From a virus (taxonomy: Duplodnaviria; Caudoviricetes), in the IMG/VR virus record IMGVR_UViG_3300028888_000107, positions 1-64,000 of that record: a stretch of DNA of 64,000 bases. One strand, given 5' to 3'. Made by a program: the position numbers and the translations under genes. Shown in pieces: positions 3,523 to 64,000 of this stretch (within the stretch, counting starts at the first letter, position 1; every line of letters starts with the position of its first letter). The notes below the pieces were generated by a model. The model did no database searches. It was not told the DNA's origin and worked only from the letters and a program-made list of their open reading frames with translations.

Positions 3523-5052
3523 TTATTTAGTTCCATTGTTTTGGGGAGGTAATTCAAAAAGTTTGTATCCCATAAGTATAAAGTCACCTTCTTCCACGTA
3601 TTCATATTCAACAACAAGATATGCAACGGTTCCTTCAAAATTAACGGTTAGTTGCTTTGTGTTGGGGTCATAGTCAACTCTGCCACTTAATTCCTCAACA
3701 TTTACAACATTTACAAATATTGGTTGGTCATTATAAACATCATATAAAAGTCTTGGAACATCAACAACATTGGAGTCTTGCGTTACTTGCTTTATTCTTG
3801 TTTCAAAATGTTCTCCATCGCAACCACATCCACAACCACCACCGCCACCACCGCTTGGCACAACCGAACTTTGTCCGGCGGGACCCCTGCAACCTTGTAT
3901 GCCTTGTAAACTTCTTATAAACAACGCAATGGCACCGGGACTTGATGGGTCGGGAAACACACTTTGTATGTTGTTGTATTCATACCAAATGTCATAAGTG
4001 GATTTACCAATTTCACCTTGTTCACCTTGAATACCTTGTATGCCCAAAAAACCTTGTATGCCTTGTGTTCCTTGAACACCTTGTTCACCTTGTATGCCTT
4101 GGTGTCCAATTTCGCCCTGTATGCCTTGGTATCCCATCCAACCTTGTATGCCTTGTGTTCCTTGCATACCTTGATATCCTTGGTATCCTTGGTATCCTTG
4201 CAAACCTTGTTCACCTTGTATGCCCTGATAGCCAAGCCAACCTTGAACACCTTGTGTTCCTTGAGCACCCTGATGTGTCGCTTGTCCCGGTACTCCTTGC
4301 AAACCTTGCATTCCTTGTATTCCTTGCACTGCTATCCAACACCCTTGTATTGCTTGTTGAATTGTGGGGTCTGTCCAAATTGCTTGTATGTATGAACCAC
4401 CATCGATTCCTTGTAAACCCTGCAAACCTTGAAAACCCTCTGTTCCATTTTCGCCATCAAGACCTTGTGCGCCTTGTACCACAATAAATTGAGAACCATC
4501 TGGAGTATAAACCCATGCTTCTCCTTGCGAACCTTGCATTCCCTGCGGACCTTGCGGACCTTGCGGACCAACTTCACCTTTCGGACCAACTTCACCTTGC
4601 GGACCAACTTCACCTTGCGGACCAACGGGCCCGGGTTCACCTTGCGGTCCAACTTCACCTTGCGGACCTTGTTCGCCTTGTTCACCCTGTTCACCTTGCG
4701 GACCAACTTCACCTTGCGGTCCTTGTTCACCTTGCGGACCTTGTTCGCCTTGTTCACCCTGCGGTCCGGCTGGTCCAACTGAACCACCCCCTGTTCCAAA
4801 AGGATACCATATTCCTTGACCAAGCACAGTTCCTTGTGATGGTGCTACATTATGGGATGTGCTTGTTTCGGAATCGCCAATAAAGATATATAGGATGTAA
4901 TTATCATCATAAACCACATCTTGGTGATGGTATATGCGCTCAGGGTTATACGGGTTTGCAACTTTTTTAAAGTTGTTGTCAACTTCAGGTATGGTTAATT
5001 CCACACCTTTTTCTTGACGATATATTATTCTTTCTTTTATCTCTGCTTGCAT
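3523..5052 (-). CDS. Collagen-like fibre protein
   Basis: Long Gly-X-Y tracts ([12 protein letters not shown], then QGIQG/QGYQG); N-terminal [17 protein letters not shown] motif of the kind seen at phage fibre N-termini; CGCGC motif after the helix. Confidence 0.9.
4540..4790. repeat. 9/18-bp tandem coding repeats of the collagen helix
   Basis: Repeated aacttcaccttgcggacc and ccttgttcgccttgttca units encoding GEVGPQ and GEQGEQ. Confidence 0.9.
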
Positions 5053-5061
5053 TTTTACAAA

Positions 5062-6453
5062 TTATTTTTTAATATGCCATTTTGTTGGAATGCCGTTATC
5101 ATTCACGTCTTTTTCATCATATTCAAAGTCGCTAACTTTGTAAAGGTTCTTGTCAACAATATCATCTATTTGCTTTTGCTTAAAACCGTTCACCTTTAAA
5201 AAGTCCCCAAGACCTCTTATACCAAGCACAACATCATCGTACATGTCTTGGTTTGGCAGTTTATCAAAACCAAGTTTTTCCATTTTTTGTTTCATTGAAC
5301 TTGCGTATTCGTTGTTGTCTTTCATTTTGTTGTATTCTTTTTCCATGTTTTCGTGCATTTCCTCCTTAAGTTTGATTTGCTTTTCCCTTTCATCCATTTC
5401 TTTCTGCCAATTCTCACGAGTATCCATTCCTTCAAACAACGAAGAAAGACCTTCTTGCGACCTTATGCTAAACATTTTCAATATATCAATAAGGTTCATG
5501 TGTATTTTTGCACACACCTTGTTGGCTCTTGCCTCCGCAGATAGTTTAACCGACTGGGAATAGGTTCCAAGCATATTGTCCTTTCCTTCCTTTGATGGTT
5601 TCTGTGCAAGGTTGTTAAATTGTTCCACCATTGCGGCAAGTTCCTTTTGGTTATCATCCTTTAAAAGGGAGTCTATGTGTCTACCGGCTTCTTGGAATAT
5701 GTTTTGTCTGTACGCACCGTACATATCGGTTCTCCCCATGTTGTTTACCTCTTTTATTTTTTTAAATGCGTCAATAAGACTTGTGAATTTTCCTTTTTCT
5801 TGCTTTGATAGTTTTTTTCCTCCGATTTCCTTGTTTAGGTAATCGTCGCCTATTCTTAACTTAATTTCATTGTAAATTTGTTCAACAGCCTCTCGTCTTA
5901 TTTCCATAACCTTTTTATCCATTCCCGCAATGCCATCTTTTACAAGCGTAAAAAACATATCTGCGTTTAGTTCAACCTGAACCAACGCCTGTTGCAACGC
6001 TTGCCTAATAATGGTCATATAATATTTGTAGCCAAGTGCCATTATTTTTGCCATTCTTATAGGTGAAAGAAACACACGGTAATTCATTATGTTAGATAGA
6101 AGAATATCGCCAGTAAAAGAACCCGGGCGTATGGAAGTCAGTTCTATTAGTTTTGTTAGTTTTAACTTGTTTTTGTCAAATTCAACCGATAAAAGTTGTT
6201 CCGCCTTGTTTGCGGTTGTTTTCTTGTTTATTTTTAAATCATCGTTGTAGTGTTCAACAAGGTTTTCAATTTCATCAACATTTTCGTTAATGGATTTGAA
6301 TATGTCGTTTCCCGTTGCTATGGTTGGGGCAAGTATCTTTGAAAGTGCGTTTTTGTTTATACTTTTAAAGATACCCTCGTTGATGGGTTCAACATTGTTT
6401 AAACCATAGGTGCTTCTAATAAAATCTTCGGATAAAAGAATGTAGTCCTTCAT
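5062..6453 (-). CDS. Hypothetical late helical protein with INE putative maturation site
   Basis: 463 aa; TATAAATA 20 nt upstream; EPINE|G near the N-terminus. Confidence 0.6.
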   Translation of the reverse strand: MKDYILLSEDFIRSTYGLNNVEPINEGIFKSINKNALSKILAPTIATGNDIFKSINENVDEIENLVEHYNDDLKINKKTTANKAEQLLSVEFDKNKLKLTKLIELTSIRPGSFTGDILLSNIMNYRVFLSPIRMAKIMALGYKYYMTIIRQALQQALVQVELNADMFFTLVKDGIAGMDKKVMEIRREAVEQIYNEIKLRIGDDYLNKEIGGKKLSKQEKGKFTSLIDAFKKIKEVNNMGRTDMYGAYRQNIFQEAGRHIDSLLKDDNQKELAAMVEQFNNLAQKPSKEGKDNMLGTYSQSVKLSAEARANKVCAKIHMNLIDILKMFSIRSQEGLSSLFEGMDTRENWQKEMDEREKQIKLKEEMHENMEKEYNKMKDNNEYASSMKQKMEKLGFDKLPNQDMYDDVVLGIRGLGDFLKVNGFKQKQIDDIVDKNLYKVSDFEYDEKDVNDNGIPTKWHIKK

Positions 6454-50920: not shown

Positions 50921-52672
50921 TTAAATCAAACTAACACCATCGTTTAATTTAATGCCAAAGGTGTAATATTGCACCTGTGGATGTTGTCCAGCTTCCACAA
51001 CAGCAAACCTACTCTTCATAGAAATTGCGGGAGCAAACGTAAATTCGGAAACAGTTTCCACCTTATCTGCGAGAAGATACGGCATGAATACAATACCGGG
51101 TTCGTTTTCTTTGCCTTTTCTGCCTACGCAAACCCTGCCATCGCTGTAAGCCATGTTAGGATCAACATAGATGCTAATGCCAGCCAAGTTGCCAATAGGA
51201 TACAAACTGTTACCGTTTGCGCTAATGGTGTTGGAAAGAGGATAAGGAACGAAACCAGCGCAATCTTGCAAAGCGGTTCCAATCATACCGGAAACCACTG
51301 CAAATGTGCCTTGTCCCCTACGACCCCTAACAGCAATAATGTTAGAAGCGGCAATAATTTTGGTCATAATCCTTCTTTGGATTGTACCCATAACTTCGCC
51401 ACCCATAGAAACATTGGTAGGAGTAATCTCACCAGTCTCAATAGGATTGCCTTCTTTGTCAAAACCTAACCACAATTTTTCAGGTGTAGTGGTTGTGCCA
51501 TCGCAGAAAATAGCGGAAATGTTGTTTTTACCTTCAACTTCCTCAATCTGCATAGCATTCAAAGCACCCAAGTTGAACATCTTTTCAAGGATGAGCTTGT
51601 TGATGCATTGGGTCAACTCGTTAACCAAAGCAGCCTCTGCCTGTGCAACGGCGTCAATGCCAAATTGTTTAAGGTCTTGAACCTGCTCACGAGTAATGGC
51701 ACTGTTAACTTGGAAAGTCTCAGCCTTAACATCCAAAGTGTAGGATTTCAAGCCAATCTGCCTACCGGCTGTTGCTTCGCCCATTTCCCTTGTGTAAGGG
51801 TTATTGGAAGTAACATTTCCTTTAACAAAACCTTCGCCACTGAAAGAAGTAACGTGGTCTTCAAATGCCCTAACCAATTCAACACCCTCTGATTTTTCAA
51901 CGGTCAAAGCGGTTTCTTCAGAACCTTCGCCTTTTTCAACCAAAGTGTAGGTACCGTCTGCCAAACCTTCGAAAAGTTCGTAAATTGGGGTCTCAGCACC
52001 TTCGCCACCCAGCATGTTGTTACCTTTGAAATAGGTTTTTTCCAAAACCCTAAACATAGGTTTGCCATCAATACGAGCGGGATAAATAAATGTTAATTCA
52101 TAATCATCGTTGCCTTGGAAAGCGTATTTTGCATTAGGTTTGAAAGTGTATTTCTCACCATTAACAGTAACACCGCTAATCATACCCTTAATCATATAAG
52201 GAGATGCTGTGTTCTTGTTTCCAAAAGGATTGGAAGTGGTTTCCCAACCGCCTTGGTTGTGCAACCTGCCACCTTCGTAAACATAGTCAAGGTATTGCAA
52301 CAAACCGTGAGGTCCTTGCATTGGAACAACGGGAACAAGGTCCAAAGCGATTGTCTGAGCTGCAACTTGCAAAGCAAGAGGAAGCACGCTGTAAACATTG
52401 TCACCGCTACCTGCCAAAGAAGGAGTGTAAGAGTTGGTTGTACCGGCTTGCGGGAAGGTGATAGCACCCATGCCACCGATGTTCATATTGGGGTTCAAAT
52501 GGACGTGTCCATCAACCGCCTCATTAACCATTTGTTTGTCATGCAAATCATGCAAGTAAGCATATTTTGCAATCCAGTTTACTTTAGAAGCATCTTGAAT
52601 ACCAAGGGATTCCTTGATGTGCTGACCCCATGAATTCATAATTTGCGCTTCGTTCAATTGAATTGAGTACAT
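50921..52672 (-). CDS. gp23: T4 gp23-like major capsid protein
   Basis: AAQTIALDLVPVVPMQGPHGLL, IDAVAQAEAALVNELTQCINK, RGRRGQG.F.V.S, G.LAG.SIYVDP, G..FMPY and MKSRFAV. Confidence 0.95.
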   Translation of the reverse strand: MYSIQLNEAQIMNSWGQHIKESLGIQDASKVNWIAKYAYLHDLHDKQMVNEAVDGHVHLNPNMNIGGMGAITFPQAGTTNSYTPSLAGSGDNVYSVLPLALQVAAQTIALDLVPVVPMQGPHGLLQYLDYVYEGGRLHNQGGWETTSNPFGNKNTASPYMIKGMISGVTVNGEKYTFKPNAKYAFQGNDDYELTFIYPARIDGKPMFRVLEKTYFKGNNMLGGEGAETPIYELFEGLADGTYTLVEKGEGSEETALTVEKSEGVELVRAFEDHVTSFSGEGFVKGNVTSNNPYTREMGEATAGRQIGLKSYTLDVKAETFQVNSAITREQVQDLKQFGIDAVAQAEAALVNELTQCINKLILEKMFNLGALNAMQIEEVEGKNNISAIFCDGTTTTPEKLWLGFDKEGNPIETGEITPTNVSMGGEVMGTIQRRIMTKIIAASNIIAVRGRRGQGTFAVVSGMIGTALQDCAGFVPYPLSNTISANGNSLYPIGNLAGISIYVDPNMAYSDGRVCVGRKGKENEPGIVFMPYLLADKVETVSEFTFAPAISMKSRFAVVEAGQHPQVQYYTFGIKLNDGVSLI

Positions 52673-57727: not shown

Positions 57728-59962
57728 TTAAAAATCGATTCTGTATTTAATTTTACCGGCATCCCAACATTTGACATATCCACGGTTTCGCATAACTTCA
57801 TCTTCTGTTAGTTCGGGATGTTCAACACATTCAACCAAATTTGATTTTTGAAAACGGTATCTTGGATATCTAACACCGTTAATTGCCCAATAGTATGTTG
57901 GCGGTACAACATATTCCTTTTTAAATCCCATCTTTTCGTAAACACCACCGTTTGAAACAGAAAGGTCTGCAAAAGTAACAATTGTTTTTGGATTGTATAG
58001 CCTTGCAAAGTGTTTCAACAACTTGCTTGCGCCTCCCCTTACATGGGTGTCAAAGGGTGAACACATTCTATAAAGTTCCCACTCCCCATCCTTTTTACCG
58101 GCACCGCTAATTCTTCTAACCGGACCAAACAAGCAAACCATTACAAGTTGGTTGTCTTTGTAAAGCCCAAGTTTAACTTGTGAAGATGTGTAGCCTTGGA
58201 TATGGTAGGTATCACAAAACTTTTTTGCCGTTTTTGAATCTATTTCTTTAACAACACAATTTCTTGCGTTTAATTTGTTGGTATGCAAACCAAGTTTTCC
58301 TCGTATCAGGTTTTTAAGTATGTCTTTCTTGTTTAGCCAATCATCTTCCCAAATGTGAATTAGTTGTACGCCCTTGTTTAAACAAGATATTGATTTGTTG
58401 TAATGGTAATCTTTTTCTTTATATATGTCGCTGTGCCAATACACACCGTTAAATTCAAAGGCAAGTTTTTTTTCCGGTAGATAAATATCAAGTTCCTTGC
58501 CGTTCAAAAGTTTTCTATCGTTTTCAATTATTTTACCGTTGTATATATCTTGAATATATAGCAACAATTCTTGTTCCCTTCCACTGTTTAAAACACCTAT
58601 CGGGTTTAACTTGGTGCAAGTTTCATAACCACCAATTATTCTATCCTTGTTTATGTTTGCATTTGTTATATATGTTTTTTCTATACATTTGTCGCAATTT
58701 GGATTTGTGCATTTGCAAATCCATTGTCCGTTTTCTGTGTATCCCAACAAAAAATTATGTTTTTCTACTGTGTTTTTTCTAACTTTTTTTAAATTGGCTT
58801 CTTTTGCCGTATTTGTTTCCAAAAAACTGTTTACACCATATTTTTCTTGGTTTGTTTTTATTACCCTTTTCTTTACTTCATCATTTTGGGATGGATGTTC
58901 AACACCATACTTTTTTATAGAAGTTTTCTTTGTTTTGCTTTTAAAATCTTCTGTTTGTGTATAGTATTCTTTTCCATATTTGGTTAAGTTGGTTTGTTTT
59001 GTTTTTTCTTTTATTTCATGTGAACACACAGGCGAATTTCCGCCATACCTTTCTTGGTTAGTTTCTTTTATTTTATCCCTTACTTCTTTTGCCCTTAATG
59101 AATTTGAAACACCGTAGTTTTTTAAAAAAGTTTCTTCCCTTTTTTGCTTTACTTCTTCTGCTTGTGAAACATTATCAACACCATACCTTTCTTGATTTGT
59201 TTTTCTTATTTTTTCTTTTATTTCTTCATTTTTTAAAGGAGATGTTTCACCATATTTTAACATACAAGTTCTTTTTATTTTTTCTTGAACTTTTTTTGAT
59301 TGTGCAGGATTGTTAACACCGTAGTTTTTTAAAAAGGTTTCTTCCCTTTTTTGCTTTATTTTTTCTGCCTGTGAAACATTAACCACACCATACCTTTCTT
59401 GGTTGGTTTTTCTTATTTTTTCTTTTATCTCCGTGTTTTTAAGTGGTGTCGTCTCACCGTATCTTTCCAAACAAGTTTCTGTTCGTTTTTTCAAAACACT
59501 TTTGTTTTGTATTGCGTGTTTTACACCGTATTTTTTAAGGGTGGTTTGCTCTTGCTTTCTTTTTATTTCTTCCTTTTCTTTTTCTGTTTTGTTTTTATAA
59601 TTCTCTTGTTTTTTTATTTTTATTGCTTCTTTTTCTTCGTTTGTTCTTTTGTTTATGGTATCTTTCATTCTTTTTGAAACAACACCGCTTTTGTTTATGC
59701 AATCCCTTGAACAATATTCATGATAGCCTTCATATATGTTAACAAAATTGCAACGCTTTCCACAAAATGGACAAACACCAAGTAAAAGGTCGACATCTTC
59801 ATTTATATAGTGATACAGTTTTTGCTTAAATGAAAAACCCTCTGGATAGTTGGTAGAAGATATTTCACCATATTCTTGAGGAAATGTTTTTGCAAACCCC
59901 TTTTCGGTTGTAAAATATCCGCTTTTAGATTCTTTGCATTTTGCTATTATGTAATCTTTCAT
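57728..59962 (-). mobile_element. Homing-endonuclease-like gene 4 (tandem paralogue of gene 3)
   Basis: Start reassigned to MKDYIIAK; 11 KYG repeats; C-terminal region nearly identical to gene 3, both ending CWDAGKIKYRIDF. Confidence 0.7.
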
Positions 59963-59976
59963 ACTGTATATATAAT

Positions 59977-60007
59977 AAAAAACGGGCAAAATATTTTTGC
60001 CCGTTTT
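59977..60007 (-). terminator. Rho-independent terminator of the tail tube gene
   Basis: aaaacgggcaaaa-tat-ttttgcccgtttt; T-tract on the minus strand. Confidence 0.85.
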
Positions 60008-60035
60008 ATTTTTTAAATTATTGATATTAAATATA

Positions 60036-60590
60036 TTAAATACCAATCAACTGCTCGTCCCAATAATCGCATCTCAAATTCAAGGTAAGTTCAGCGGCTT
60101 CGGAGTTATCGTATGCCAAATCACCCATACCCGTTAAGTTGCCGGTTGGAAACACATCCTTAAGGATAATCTTTCTGTACACACTGCCATCACGGTTAAA
60201 TTGAACAATTACACCGGAACCACAGTAATCTTTTTTCATACCACTTGCACCAGTAAGCGGATCCCAAATCATGTTTCTCCACCTTCTTAAAGATGTGTAA
60301 ACATAGTTTTCGTTTGAGTCATCCAAGTTCATTGTAAACACAACTGTTAGGTCAAGAGTGGTTTTTTCAGGAAATCCCGCATAACTTCTTGTAGCCTGCT
60401 TGTATTTTTGTTCCGTTGTTGTCACACTTGGGTTAAGGTCATCCAAACCGCCTATTGATTTGACGTGTTCAATAAGAATTGGGGATAGGGATGTTGGGCT
60501 GAACAAAGTAAGTTCAAACATTGCGTTATAAACCGGTTCCCAATGGTTTATAGCGGCTTGCGAGTTTCTATAATGAGGTAAACCTGCCAT
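60036..60590 (-). CDS. gp19: T4 gp19-like tail tube protein
   Basis: WEPVY..MFEL, W...IWDPLTG..G.KKDY, Q..RDG, VFPT and LRCDYW. Confidence 0.85.
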   Translation of the reverse strand: MAGLPHYRNSQAAINHWEPVYNAMFELTLFSPTSLSPILIEHVKSIGGLDDLNPSVTTTEQKYKQATRSYAGFPEKTTLDLTVVFTMNLDDSNENYVYTSLRRWRNMIWDPLTGASGMKKDYCGSGVIVQFNRDGSVYRKIILKDVFPTGNLTGMGDLAYDNSEAAELTLNLRCDYWDEQLIGI

Positions 60591-60613
60591 AATTCTTATA
60601 TGTATATTCTTTT

Positions 60614-60638
60614 CAACACCACACCTTTGGCGGTGTTG
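60614..60638 (-). promoter_or_regulatory. 5' leader hairpin of the tail tube mRNA
   Basis: caacacc-gcc-aaa-ggt-gt-ggtgttg immediately after the late promoter. Confidence 0.5.
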
Positions 60639-60644
60639 TTATTA

Positions 60645-60652
60645 TATTTATA
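60645..60652 (-). promoter_or_regulatory. Late promoter TATAAATA
   Basis: Upstream of the tail tube gene. Confidence 0.75.
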
Positions 60653-60685: not shown

Positions 60686-60790
60686 AATTTACCCATAAAA
60701 TGTGTTTATAGGTAAATTTGCCTATAAACTGTTTATAAGCGATAAAACTTATAAATTGTGATTATAAGTGAATACGCTTATAGTTTTATC
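60686..60790. repeat. Cluster of overlapping AT-rich inverted repeats
   Basis: Hairpins at 60686-60718, 60723-60737 and 60748-60768, plus a near-perfect pairing of 60741-60754 with 60778-60790. Confidence 0.7.
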
Positions 60791-61596
60791 ATATCCCCAA
60801 ACATTTTATCCACGTTTGGGTCAGACCATTTTATAAACCCTGTGCCGGGTGTAAAGGTAAGTTCTCCCAAATATACGTTATCATTTACTTCATAAAAGTC
60901 AACCCTTACAAACCTAAAATCGTTTGATAGTTTTTTTGCGTAGTCAACCATTGTTTCAAATTTGTTTGGCTTTATGTCTATTTTGTTTGGGTTGTTTTTT
61001 ATGTCGCATCTTGATATGTCAACAAAGTTAAAGTCCATATCATAGTAGTTAAGGTGAAAATCTTGGGTATGCCTGCCGTTAATTACTTGGCAATATGTTG
61101 GGTTGCCGTTAAAACACAAAAACTTGTAATCGGTTAGTTCCTTTTGGTTGTGGGCTTTAAGGTAGGTTTCTGCATAGCATTTTCTTTTAATTTTAAGGTA
61201 GTGGGGTTCCAACGAATTGTAGCCAAATGGTGTGTTTATCCATTGTTGCATTTTGGTTTGGCAATCGGTTTCGCTTAAACAGGATTTGCTCCTGCATATA
61301 ATGTTGTAGCCGTAGCCGTGGTTGCATTTTAACACAAATTGGTTTGGCAATTCGGCAAACCTTATATCTTGCGGTTTTGTGTAGGTTTTTATAACAGGAA
61401 CACAAATATCCATTCCTATCTTTTCCTTTGCGTATTCGTGCAAAAGAAGTTTGTCTGAGCATTTTGAACGAAGGCTAATGTCATCGTAAAGTTGCAACCA
61501 TTGTGATTTTTCACACCAAGTTTCGGGATTGTCTATGTTAAAATTGTTATACCCAAAACACTTTGCCTTTTTTATGATAAGTTCTTTTAAAGACAT
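60778..61596 (-). CDS. TupA-like ATP-grasp protein
   Basis: WCEKSQWL, DKLLLHEY, LPNQFVLKCNHG, DYKFLCFNG and VRVDFY...GELTFTPG. Confidence 0.9.
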   Translation of the reverse strand: MSLKELIIKKAKCFGYNNFNIDNPETWCEKSQWLQLYDDISLRSKCSDKLLLHEYAKEKIGMDICVPVIKTYTKPQDIRFAELPNQFVLKCNHGYGYNIICRSKSCLSETDCQTKMQQWINTPFGYNSLEPHYLKIKRKCYAETYLKAHNQKELTDYKFLCFNGNPTYCQVINGRHTQDFHLNYYDMDFNFVDISRCDIKNNPNKIDIKPNKFETMVDYAKKLSNDFRFVRVDFYEVNDNVYLGELTFTPGTGFIKWSDPNVDKMFGDMIKL

Positions 61597-61625
61597 ATTT
61601 GTTGCTTTTGGTTACTAAATATAGT

Positions 61626-62894
61626 TTACAATCTAATTATATTGTCGCTTTTTGGTAAAACCGATTTTACATCGTACACAAAACCGTTTTCGCTTAAATA
61701 ATCGTTGTAGTTTATGTCAAGATAGTTTTCGTGCGGCACCGCCAAAACAACCACATCGTATTTTTTGTTTGGTATCTTTTCCACAACATCAACGCCAAGT
61801 TCATCTTTTGCAAATTGTTTGTTGCAATAGCCATCCACAACCGTTATGTTGTTGGTGTACTCGGATAGTTTGTTGTATATTTTAACAACTTTTGTGTTTC
61901 TTATATCAGGGCAGTTTTCCTTAAAAGTAACACCCATTACAAGTATGTTGGAACCTTTTACAAGAATGCCACGTTTGTTCATGTGGTGAATTATTTTGTT
62001 GGCTATGTAATCTGACATATCTTCGTTTACTTGCCTGCCGCTTTTTATAAGCACGGGATTTACCTTGTAATCCTCAGCCTTTTGTATTAAGTAGTAGGGG
62101 TCAACACCTATGCAATGCCCTCCAACCAACCCGGGTTGCAAGCGTATAAAGTTCCATTTTGTGGAAGCGGCATCAACAACCTCCTTTGTGTCAATCCCCA
62201 TTGCGTTAAAAATCTTCGCAAGTTCGTTAAAAAAGGCAATATTGATATCCCTTTGGGTGTTTTCAATAATCTTGGATGCTTCGGCAACCTTAATTGAACT
62301 TGCCCTAAATGTACCGTTAAGCAAAACCGAGTTGTAAAGTTCATCAACAATTAGGGATGTATTTTCGTTGGAACCGCTTGTTACCTTTTTTATTTTTTCA
62401 ACCGTGTGTTCCTTGTCACCGGGGTTTATTCTTTCGGGGGAGTAACCAACAAAAAAGTCCTTGTTGTACTTTAACCCGCTTGCCTTTTCTATTTCAGGTA
62501 CACAAACCTCTTCTGTGCAGCAAGGAAACGTGGTGCTTTCATATATGACAATATCGTTCTTTTTAACAACACTTCCCACAAGTTCGCTTGACTTAATTAG
62601 TGGTGTTAAGTCGGGTTTGTACTTGTCATCAACGGGCGTTGGAACCGCCACAACATAAATGTTGCAATCCCTTATGTCTTCCTTGTTGGTTGTGCATACA
62701 AGCATCTTTGTGTTTATGGCTATTTCAAGAAGTTTGTTGTCAACTTCAAGTGTGGAATCAATTCCTTTGTTTAATTCTTCCACACGCTTTTCATTTATGT
62801 CATACCCTATGACGTTGTACTTGGTTGAAAACAACCTTGCAAGTGGCAAGCCAACATAACCCAATCCTATTACTGCTATCTTGTGTTCTTTCAT
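61626..62894 (-). CDS. tviB: UDP-N-acetylhexosamine 6-dehydrogenase (TviB/WbpO family)
   Basis: VIGLGYVGLPLA, AVPTP, YESTT.P, GYSPERINPGD, KIIENTQRDINIA, GGHCIGVDPYYL, GVTFKENCPDIRN; start MKEHK. Confidence 0.9.
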   Translation of the reverse strand: MKEHKIAVIGLGYVGLPLARLFSTKYNVIGYDINEKRVEELNKGIDSTLEVDNKLLEIAINTKMLVCTTNKEDIRDCNIYVVAVPTPVDDKYKPDLTPLIKSSELVGSVVKKNDIVIYESTTFPCCTEEVCVPEIEKASGLKYNKDFFVGYSPERINPGDKEHTVEKIKKVTSGSNENTSLIVDELYNSVLLNGTFRASSIKVAEASKIIENTQRDINIAFFNELAKIFNAMGIDTKEVVDAASTKWNFIRLQPGLVGGHCIGVDPYYLIQKAEDYKVNPVLIKSGRQVNEDMSDYIANKIIHHMNKRGILVKGSNILVMGVTFKENCPDIRNTKVVKIYNKLSEYTNNITVVDGYCNKQFAKDELGVDVVEKIPNKKYDVVVLAVPHENYLDINYNDYLSENGFVYDVKSVLPKSDNIIRL

Positions 62895-62914
62895 CTGTTT
62901 TTGTGTTGTGTATT

Positions 62915-63631
62915 TTAATATAAGTTCCAATATTCGTACCAATTTAAATCCCTGCAATAAAGTTGCATTATAACATCCGTAAATGTTATGTCCTTGTATG
63001 TTTCGGAAAATGAAACAAATTTATCTTCGTGAAATTCAAATTCATTGGTTTTCTTGTTTTTTATATAACCAGTTCTATTATCAAAATACCACACCTCTTT
63101 AAAGTAATATGTTAGGGGTGCTATGGATGGTATCATTTGCGAATCACCGCTAACCATTAGTTTTCTTTCGCTTTTGGTTGTGTGGTTAACAATTCTTGAA
63201 CATTTGTGGTTGTACCTGTTAAGCAATCTGTACGATGGTGTTTCCATAAAGTTTTCATTAAACAACTTCATATATCCACCGCTTATGGTTTCGTTATCGT
63301 TAAAACAAGTTATGGTGTATTCAGGTTCCTTGTTTGGAAAAAGATATGATAAATCTCCTGTTTCCAAAATTAAAGGAACCAAATGAAAATCGTTTTGGCT
63401 AAAGCCAAACCTTATAAGTTCATCCACAAGCGGCAACACATATTTATAGGTGTATTCGGTTGTGTAATGGTGTTCGTTACCGGGCATGTTTGAATACAGC
63501 ACATCTTTATCCTTAAAAATGGGAAGTTTGTGAATATCTCTCCCAGAATTATCATACTTGACGCCATACACTTTGTTACGATATGGAAAACAAATGTATT
63601 TTGCCATTTTTAATATGTTTTCCCTTTCCAT
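62915..63631 (-). CDS. Possible DHHW/AlgX-like SGNH polysaccharide-modifying protein
   Basis: NEHHYT and LMVSGDSQ...PL..YFKEV..FDNR resemble DHHW/ALGX motifs; start chosen at the TAATG overlap with the upstream gene. Confidence 0.4.
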   Translation of the reverse strand: MERENILKMAKYICFPYRNKVYGVKYDNSGRDIHKLPIFKDKDVLYSNMPGNEHHYTTEYTYKYVLPLVDELIRFGFSQNDFHLVPLILETGDLSYLFPNKEPEYTITCFNDNETISGGYMKLFNENFMETPSYRLLNRYNHKCSRIVNHTTKSERKLMVSGDSQMIPSIAPLTYYFKEVWYFDNRTGYIKNKKTNEFEFHEDKFVSFSETYKDITFTDVIMQLYCRDLNWYEYWNLY

Positions 63632-64000
63632 TAGAAACTTGTTATATTTATCATATCGCCCCAATACAAACTTGTTTCATAATCCCTGCATCCAAAAATT
63701 CCACCGTTTGGGGTAAATGTTAGTTCACCAAGATACAATTTATCATTAACTATATAAAAGTCAACCCTTACAAAATCAAAATCTTTTGATAACTTTCTTG
63801 AATAGTCAAGCATTTCATCAAGATTCACTGGCTTTTTATCCAAGTTGTTAAAGTCTTGCCTTGCACAACTCCAACCTATATCAAAGGTGTTCCAATCGGT
63901 ATCGTATATGTTTTCGTGCAAATTGTTTGAATACCTATCCGATATTACCATTATCATTTTTGGTTCGCCATTGCAGCACCAAACCTTGTAATCCACAAGC
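63631..64000 (-). CDS. Second TupA-like ATP-grasp protein (5' end outside window)
   Basis: Open to the window edge: LVDYKVWCCNGEP, KPVNLDEMLDYSRKLS and FVRVDFY..LYLGELTFTP.GG. Confidence 0.9.
   Translation of the reverse strand, partial: LVDYKVWCCNGEPKMIMVISDRYSNNLHENIYDTDWNTFDIGWSCARQDFNNLDKKPVNLDEMLDYSRKLSKDFDFVRVDFYIVNDKLYLGELTFTPNGGIFGCRDYETSLYWGDMINITSF

Follow-up and report, generated by a model that had tools for sequence, protein, structure and literature searches.

Giant eukaryotic viruses are known to encode the synthesis of glycans, and so, for short glycans, are mycobacteriophages. In the mycobacteriophages Che8, Corndog and Myrna, as in the chloroviruses and mimiviruses, soluble viral glycosyltransferases (GTs), sometimes accompanied by nucleotide-sugar enzymes, decorate the particle; these GTs are expressed with the structural genes and act independently of the host export machinery. 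We know of no such system, in a mycobacteriophage or a giant virus, that contains TupA amidoligases, a dehydrogenase acting on uridine diphosphate-N-acetylhexosamine (UDP-HexNAc) or an enzyme of the DHHW fold. Here we describe a four-gene operon with predicted members of all three classes, carried by IMG/VR virus record IMGVR_UViG_3300028888_000107, a linear record of 78.6 kb whose first 64 kb (64,000 nucleotides) form the stretch analysed, called the window below; contig and window share one numbering, and the remaining 14.6 kb of the record were also examined. The source is a giant T4-like phage (megaphage) of the sheep and cattle rumen, and the record is estimated to be 33% complete (CheckV). 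We consider it likely that the operon directs the synthesis of an amidated, acylated HexNAc-uronate glycan in the cytoplasm. That it does so as a self-contained late pathway, whose probably O-acetylated product is placed most likely on virion proteins, is the reading we favour, tentatively and at somewhat less than an even chance; in contrast to the virus systems above, virion glycosylation is here read from the genes.

The closest enzymes that have been characterised belong to bacterial capsule loci. In Cj1438, from the HS:2 capsule locus of Campylobacter jejuni, a linker connects a GT2 domain to a TupA-like ATP-grasp domain, and the latter amidates the C6 carboxylate of in-chain glucuronate with serinol phosphate or ethanolamine phosphate (PMC11800397, PMC11800379). 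In Salmonella Typhi, TviBCDE alone make the acetylated Vi polymer inside the cell, where TviD is a cytoplasmic SGNH O-acetyltransferase working on a HexNAc-uronate polymer (PMC8760489). K4 chondroitin polymerase (K4CP) of Escherichia coli (2z86) and heparosan synthase 2 of Pasteurella (PmHS2; 8viw, 8vh7) are soluble enzymes with two GT-A domains, which add uronic acid and HexNAc alternately.

In the phage, four coupled genes, all on the minus strand, occupy the positions at which an earlier note, made from the letters of the window, had placed them. The operon and its boundaries are listed below in the direction of transcription; L003 denotes an extract of the same contig with its own numbering (for instance, L003 7613-7629 is contig 66210-66226).

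Contig 66210-66226: terminator-like G+C-rich hairpin with T runs on both strands, closing the upstream gp32/orf114/orf203 unit.
Contig 66115-66122, minus strand: TATAAATA, 18 nt 5' of the ATG of the 821-aa gene.
Contig 63631-66096 (63631-64000 in the window), minus strand: 821-aa tri-domain enzyme, predicted from family profiles and an AlphaFold2 (AF2) model.
62915-63631, minus strand: 238-aa protein of predicted PatB1/DHHW fold, from its AF2 fold, motifs and 47 homologues.
61626-62894, minus strand: TviB/WbpO-like dehydrogenase of 422 aa, predicted from Pfam and NCBIfam scores and motifs.
60778-61596, minus strand: stand-alone TupA-like ATP-grasp ligase of 272 aa, predicted from PF14305 and conserved residues.
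60704-60729 (L003 2107-2132), minus strand: A+T-rich hairpin, weak and terminator-like, about 50 nt after the last stop of the operon.
60036-60652, minus strand: next transcription unit, with TATAAATA at 60645-60652 and a 184-aa probable tail-tube gene at 60036-60590.

The stop of the 821-aa gene and the ATG of the 238-aa gene overlap in a TAATG at 63633-63629, the dehydrogenase ATG lies 20 nt past the 238-aa stop and the 272-aa ligase starts 29 nt past the dehydrogenase stop, so that the tight operon announced from the TAATG overlap is borne out by four minus-strand frames. The octamer at its head, TATAAATA, is enriched in the 20-kb locus (seven sites against 1.7 expected), lies, on the contig, 18-20 nt 5' of the ATG in eight genes, which is its modal spacing, and is found ahead of the portal, capsid and probable tail-tube genes as well. 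On the closest relative contig (L004; 77-90% protein identity) it likewise heads the operon, one gene further upstream. Since the octamer sits at the modal spacing and is common to structural genes, the operon carries what, by analogy, is a T4-type late-promoter signal at the usual distance. One additional exact copy, at 63441-63448 (minus strand) inside the 238-aa gene, has no open reading frame (ORF) start within 60 nt and probably occurs by chance.

Two units of the operon match PF14305, whose cut-off is 25 bits: the 272-aa ligase with 155 bits over profile positions 1-241, and residues 565-816 of the 821-aa protein with 125 bits. The two copies are 44% identical to each other. Among 121 homologous domains, 38 positions are at least 90% conserved; the stand-alone ligase keeps all 38, and the fused domain keeps all except one (F87, which is Y). 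The ATP-grasp residues K90 (in VLKCNHG), E143, D233 (in RVDFY) and E245 (in GELTF) are present in both. By sequence, both copies are TupA-like ATP-grasp amidoligases with intact catalytic and ATP/Mg-binding residues, and amidation is their predicted activity; a sequence search of the Protein Data Bank (PDB) with the stand-alone ligase returned a chance match only. The ATP-grasp assignment of the earlier note thus stands, with one change in its count of two ligase genes: there are two TupA units, one a gene of its own and the other a domain of the 821-aa enzyme, of which only the last 122 residues of the TupA domain fall inside the window. Searches of longer proteins show that this TupA clade is repeatedly fused to GT2, GT92, TOD1/MUCI70, Stealth and GT4 domains, and many of these fusions sit on contigs of 240-370 kb.

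The 821-aa protein extends across the window edge, and it is beyond base 64000, where the earlier note had advised looking for glycosyltransferases, that two GT-A domains are found in it. The first (residues ~1-262) is GT92-like/GT2_4, with 62.5 bits to PF13704, 28.1 bits to PF01697 over residues 12-248 and a DVD at 94-96; the second (~283-500) is of the GT2 type, with 69.8 bits to PF00535 over residues 287-396 and a DSDD at 375-378; a linker then leads to the TupA-like ATP-grasp domain (~551-821). In the AF2 model of residues 1-560 (predicted local distance difference test, pLDDT, 84) both GT-A domains are recovered, and the linker before the TupA domain is poorly modelled. The best fold matches of this region are K4CP, which aligns to both GT domains at E 4e-18 with 13% identity and a template-modelling (TM) score of only ~0.33, and PmHS2, which matches one domain with 24% identity and a root-mean-square deviation (rmsd) of 3.5 Å over 251 columns; the TM scores are as low as ~0.33 because the domains are oriented differently from those of the two-GT-A polymerases. 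The two-GT region is thus suggestive of a polymerase in its modelled fold, although the phage enzyme differs from K4CP and PmHS2 in its GT92-like N-terminal domain as well as in identity and domain orientation, and polymerisation by it is a prediction from the model. Among GenBank phages the 821-aa protein finds single-domain matches only, including its N-terminal GT in Lak megaphages.

Judged by published domain layout, Cj1438 resembles this protein in having GT2, linker and TupA on one soluble polypeptide, in a locus that also has a nucleotide-sugar dehydrogenase and in which Cj1432 and Cj1434 are the polymerising GTs; it is the only biochemically defined close analogue of the phage TupA fusion. 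The differences are several. The phage protein has an extra, GT92-like domain at its N terminus and is accompanied by a second, stand-alone ligase; the phage dehydrogenase is of the UDP-HexNAc (TviB) type and not the UDP-glucose type; the setting is a late phage operon; and no serinol-phosphate or ethanolamine-phosphate pathway, phosphatase, 3-deoxy-D-manno-oct-2-ulosonic acid (Kdo) linker or KpsMT export genes were seen with it.

The dehydrogenase frame, 61626-62957, probably has its true start at ATG 62894, giving 422 aa as in its relative on L004. All three UDPG_MGDP_dh domains (PF03721, PF00984, PF03720) score above their cut-offs and TIGR03026 gives 373 bits against a cut-off of 190. Among the narrower models the best is the TviB equivalog NF011729, at 460 bits (below its cut-off of 592), followed by N-acetylmannosamine dehydrogenase models with 222 and 206 bits and UDP-glucose dehydrogenase models with 137 bits at most. 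The NAD motif GLGYVG is found at residues 10-15 and a catalytic-type Cys261 in GGHCIGVDP. As the TviB score lies under the equivalog cut-off, we call the enzyme a TviB-like UDP-HexNAc 6-dehydrogenase, with a substrate predicted by resemblance, which upholds the uronic-acid dehydrogenase of the earlier note.

The 238-aa protein is the least conventional of the four. Its open frame spans 62915-63664 (249 aa), and ATG 63631, the start used in all 47 homologues, gives 238 aa. Neither Pfam (E<=0.01), PHROG nor NCBIfam contains a match for it, none of 43 family members hits the DHHW (PF14286) or ALGX model of Pfam even at E<=1, and a profile search of the PDB with the family returned nothing at E<=10. 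The AF2 model built from the family alignment (pLDDT 93.4, predicted TM score 0.90) nevertheless matches PatB1 (5v8d) with Z 16.1 over 212 aa at an rmsd of 3.1 and the DHHW protein 4nzk with Z 15.2 (Foldseek E 4e-8); AlgJ (Z 6.9) and AlgX (Z 5.9) follow, and nothing else exceeds Z 4.2. The modelled fold, with its permuted motif order, is that of the DHHW family (PF14286; Bacillus cereus PatB1, 5v8d/5v8e; EUBSIR_00411, 4nzk) and of AlgX and AlgJ. The hallmarks of the DHHW family are a Block V TDHHW (Asp200, His202), a Block I KDS (Ser337) and a Block II DxRY (Asp357, Arg359) (PMC9487903). In the phage protein the corresponding motifs are E53-H54-H55-Y56, G162-D163-S164 and D184-N185-R186, so that the HH, the xDS nucleophile and the DxR oxyanion motifs are all present, with D184 and R186 at +20 and +22 from S164, exactly the PatB1 spacing (S337, D357, R359). 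H55, D163, S164 and D184 occur in all 43 family members and R186 in 42; HH is followed in this family by Y or F rather than W.

From the model we are confident that the 238-aa protein is a circularly permuted SGNH protein of the PatB1/DHHW fold, and it is probably a glycan O-acyl(acetyl)transferase or esterase. The label 'DHHW/AlgX-like' given to it earlier therefore holds for the fold and the active-site motifs, while the sequence family lies outside the Pfam model. Compared with DHHW and AlgX proteins it is ~60-150 residues shorter and has no signal peptide, membrane anchor or membrane-bound O-acyltransferase (MBOAT) partner: no hydrophobic segment was detected (maximum 19-residue hydropathy 0.69), and no MBOAT was found in the 78.6-kb record (33% of the genome). 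In contrast to the DHHW family, its relatives are often fused to cytoplasmic GTs. The operon as a whole also recalls the Vi system, in which a TviB-like UDP-GlcNAc (UDP-N-acetylglucosamine) 6-dehydrogenase, a polymerising GT and a cytoplasmic SGNH-superfamily enzyme act on a HexNAc-uronate chain. Unlike that system, the phage locus has no TviC epimerase or vex export genes and has amidoligases in addition; its predicted GT is a two-domain GT-A protein, not the GT4 enzyme TviE, and in place of TviD it has an SGNH protein of the permuted DHHW/AlgX type.

The locus is phage DNA. T4-type core genes are present on the record (a gp23-family capsid gene at 50921-52672, the gp20 portal, gp32 and a baseplate hub fragment), phage genes flank the module on both sides within a single contig, and the G+C content is continuous over the module region (0.32-0.39). 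The stretch with the module is present in sheep and cattle gut metagenomes from 14 studies, and is therefore no one-off. Contigs from two other studies, one of 6.6 kb over L003 97-6737 and one of 31 kb (run X4) over L003 1438-10000, jointly bridge the tail tube, ligase, dehydrogenase, 238-aa gene, 821-aa gene and gp32, at ~95-96% identity to the locus and with flat depth. Co-assembled host DNA, betrayed by a break in coverage or composition, was the concern raised in the earlier note; what is found is an even G+C content, phage flanks and independent bridging contigs. Between this phage and L004 the nonsynonymous distance dN of the operon genes is ~0.07 and the synonymous distance dS is saturated: the operon genes are under purifying selection.

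Relatives of the 238-aa protein are known only from viral or metagenomic DNA, beside or fused to glycosyltransferases. We found 47 near relatives among 5.8 billion proteins, all of them metagenomic, and an exhaustive profile search gave 237 clusters (50% identity) of the family among 1.84 billion representatives. Its nearest ESM Atlas clusters are viral, homologues lie on metagenome contigs of 140-307 kb, and three megaphage records of 334-412 kb, nearly complete and with gp23, contain the family but no TupA. No match was found in 50,697 GenBank phage records, and a relative was likewise missing from 185,579 prokaryote species genomes in two pattern scans, which suggests, within the reach of pattern-based scans, that the family is absent from cells. 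A glycosyltransferase domain was confirmed in 10 of the 10 fused members tested. The DHHW-like domain is seen fused, at either end, to at least seven GT families (DUF4422, GT92, GT2, GT4, GT8, TOD1/MUCI70 and rhamnosyltransferase-like), for example in L009 9992-11425 (plus strand) and in P0171, P0178, P0202, P0257 and P0299.

The gene order varies among relatives. On L004 it reads ADP-ribosyltransferase, a 1115-aa protein with three GT domains and a TupA domain, DHHW, dehydrogenase and a second DHHW paralogue. This second paralogue (L004 15341-16057, plus strand), 62% identical to the first, takes the place of the stand-alone TupA (window 60778-61596), so that, by sequence comparison, close relatives have exchanged one predicted decorating enzyme for another at a constant place in the operon. 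The 195-aa ADP-ribosyltransferase (L004 9399-9986, plus strand; PF03496, E 4e-14) is the first gene of that operon, behind TATAAATA; its stop and the GT-TupA gene's start share another TAATG, and the window phage has no counterpart at that position. In a 411-kb phage (L007) a small GT-like protein, a dehydrogenase, a DHHW protein and a GT2 follow two collagen-like genes, and in L009 a DHHW domain fused to DUF4422 stands behind a GT92 gene. The recurrent core, from lineage to lineage, thus consists of a DHHW-like gene that adjoins GT genes or is fused with them, joined by a dehydrogenase in L004 and L007, and amidation is an add-on of the lineage of this phage. In the literature searched, no phage is described with a TupA-type amidoligase or a soluble DHHW-fold enzyme, nor one that supplies UDP-HexNAc-uronate itself and couples this to a polymerase-like two-GT enzyme. 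Overall, this is a real, conserved phage module, and its unusual parts are the TupA amidoligases and the virus-restricted soluble DHHW-fold family.

From the gene content, the motifs, the operon signals, the selection and the independent occurrences we infer a series of reactions, their donors and amines, and an acceptor. The dehydrogenase would oxidise UDP-GlcNAc (or UDP-GalNAc, UDP-N-acetylgalactosamine) to the UDP-HexNAc-uronic acid, a donor that the host may not make in quantity. The two GT-A domains would add the uronic acid and a second sugar to the acceptor, possibly alternating as glycosaminoglycan polymerases do. The fused and the stand-alone TupA enzymes would then use ATP to convert C6 carboxylates of in-chain sugars into amides, host metabolism supplying the amine or amino acid; the presence of two paralogues suggests two amines or two sites. 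The soluble DHHW-fold enzyme would add an O-acyl group, probably acetyl, to the chain, or possibly remove one; with no MBOAT partner, the acyl group would have to come from a cytoplasmic donor, as it does for TviD in the Vi system. As acceptor we propose a phage structural protein (capsid decoration, fibre or tail), in which case the progeny would leave the cell with a charge-modified glycan coat.

This choice of acceptor is favoured because the operon has a late signal, because its enzymes are soluble (none of the four products has a transmembrane segment or a signal peptide) and because no initiating transferase, flippase, polymerase or ABC transporter was found in the operon or the rest of the fragment. 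Taken together, the late motif, the missing export functions, the polymerase-like GTs and the lack of a hydroxymethylase-type gene in the 78.6-kb record shift weight towards an acceptor made by the phage and away from DNA. The amino-acylated uronate glycan suggested in the earlier note is supported in part: the gene identities, the operon coupling and the chemical logic of uronate supply, amide ligation and O-acylation stand, and of the targets it named, virion, host capsule and DNA, each is still no more than a candidate.

Several observations weigh against the proposed virion pathway. The position of the triad acid (residue 53) is Glu here and variable across the 238-aa family, a departure from the DHHW family; together with the lack of a Pfam DHHW or ALGX match, this weakens the case for transferase as against esterase activity, and for any one acyl donor. 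The polymerase resemblance of the modelled two-GT region draws on the generic GT-A fold, at a TM score of ~0.33, and the late promoter is recognised by analogy with T4. In the sheep metatranscriptome library X12, near-identical contigs cover some of the 821-aa gene, along with the point where it meets the 238-aa gene, leaving parts of the dehydrogenase and ligase genes uncovered; as DNA carry-over is possible, they are a weak sign of operon expression and no proof of transcription. No Ser/Thr-rich acceptor tag is seen in any credible ORF of the fragment. The one candidate for such a tag, an antisense ORF over gp32, was judged spurious. The earlier note had set the module next to the tail tube gene; it does adjoin a probable tail-tube gene here (the 184-aa product has E values of 1.5e-5 and 1e-4 with tail-tube families of PHROG and of 0.12 with T4 gp19), but this is so only in this lineage, the module following the ADP-ribosyltransferase in L004 and the collagen-like genes in L007. 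Soluble GTs, TupA ligases and dehydrogenases are moreover just as characteristic of bacterial capsule loci whose substrates are lipid-linked primers, and since such capsule enzymes are soluble too, the missing membrane segments are also compatible with a target in the host envelope. Finally, the absences of an MBOAT and of a hydroxymethylase carry little weight in a record that is only 33% complete.

The host envelope is accordingly where the strongest rival lies. The phage enzymes might extend or re-decorate a lipid-linked precursor of the host capsule, O-antigen or exopolysaccharide, which host transporters would export; such remodelling would spare progeny from loss on debris and infected cells, or block rival phages. 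The closest characterised relatives, Cj1438, K4CP, PmHS2, TviB and TviD, are all cytoplasmic capsule enzymes working on lipid-anchored chains, which makes a host lipid-linked acceptor a serious rival. Fusions of TupA domains to proteins of the polysaccharide flippase family also occur, PF14305 is present in Bacteroides thetaiotaomicron, and the swap of the last gene (TupA here, the second DHHW paralogue in L004) is a variation such as serotype loci show. However, the functions needed to start, flip, polymerise or export such a chain are those missing from the operon and fragment, and late expression in a lytic T4-like phage would leave little time to renew the cell surface. The DHHW-like family, with no relative in the prokaryote scans and with viral nearest clusters, is also unlike a recently borrowed host capsule gene. 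On balance, we regard envelope remodelling as unlikely, if still worth serious attention.

Returning to the virion as the target, the preferred reading has a bolder version, which we hold to be doubtful and somewhat less likely than envelope remodelling: a capsule-like coat, in which an amidated, O-acetylated HexNAc-uronate polysaccharide would be grown directly on a virion protein, with an MBOAT-free viral branch of the DHHW/AlgX enzymes and serotype-like swaps of decorating genes. Were it true, the bacteriophage would carry a coat of polysaccharide and show serotype variation of its own. More generally, should the particle be coated by the product, this would bear on a rumen megaphage's survival of proteases, its sticking to mucus or feed particles, and its recognition or avoidance of cells. 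The 238-aa family would in turn be a compact, soluble version of enzymes studied so far only as extracytoplasmic partners of MBOAT proteins, useful for the question of acyl-group supply and possibly as a tool for glyco-engineering.

A third reading, in our view improbable, is that an amidated, acetylated polyuronate is polymerised by the two-GT enzyme and builds up in the cytoplasm, with no covalent link to virions, to be released at lysis as a matrix, decoy or adhesive around the burst. It has a precedent in TviBCDE, which alone accumulate O-acetylated Vi polymer as intracellular inclusions without the export genes (PMC8760489), and it agrees with the best fold matches being processive two-domain polymerases and with no acceptor protein being evident. 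Against this, the known capsule polymerases with two GT-A domains require a primer, the benefit of such a polymer is demonstrated for no phage, and the same evidence fits a chain grown on protein.

Direct modification of protein is less probable still. One or both TupA-like enzymes could act on a side chain of a phage protein, as Klebsiella CfmP, assigned to the TupA-like family, is reported to act on the pilin FimA independently of surface polysaccharides (PMC13419641), and the stand-alone ligase gene does abut the probable tail-tube gene; yet two glycosyltransferase domains are covalently joined to one of the TupA copies, a dehydrogenase that would form uronic acid is co-transcribed, this TupA clade has GTs as its fusion partners in the great majority of cases, and in L004 the stand-alone copy is replaced by a DHHW paralogue of the glycan type.
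Hypermodification of DNA, in which the GTs would place HexNAc-uronate on hydroxymethylated bases and the ligases amidate it into a bulky anti-restriction modification, is equally remote and as a target unlikely: T4-type phages do glycosylate their DNA, some bringing their own nucleotide-sugar genes, and the operon lies downstream of gp32, but the 78.6-kb record (33% of the genome) contains no thymidylate-synthase-family hydroxymethylase, a hairpin and the late promoter separate the operon from gp32 whereas T4 produces its DNA glucosyltransferases early, while replication proceeds, the two GT domains belong to GT-A and are similar to polysaccharide polymerases, and relatives of TupA and DHHW are known only from glycan or protein contexts.

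Some further features of the contig may be recorded. Of the genes flanking the module in L004 and L007, none has a homologue on this contig, collagen repeats excepted, and no acceptor gene common to them came to light. A 509-aa collagen-repeat protein with two runs of 30 G-x-y triplets is encoded at window 3523-5052 (minus strand), and directly upstream of its gene a 463-aa ORF (5062-6453, minus strand) has TATAAATA 19 nt before its ATG; the two probably form a late fibre unit. Between gp32 and the operon lie ORFs of 203 and 114 aa (contig 66263-66874 and 66886-67230, minus strand; L003 7666-8277 and 8289-8633), neither with a family match, and both, like gp32, are covered by near-identical contigs of the sheep RNA library. 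Just downstream of the tail-tube gene, a large gene annotated as a homing endonuclease (PHROG 3339/DUF7487) occupies window 57728-60046 (L003 1-1449). Contigs in other metagenomes break or diverge inside it, with joints or loose ends at about L003 600-1440, and in the 31-kb contig of run X4 the match begins no earlier than L003 1438, so that strains seem to differ in whether they have this selfish gene or in its sequence.

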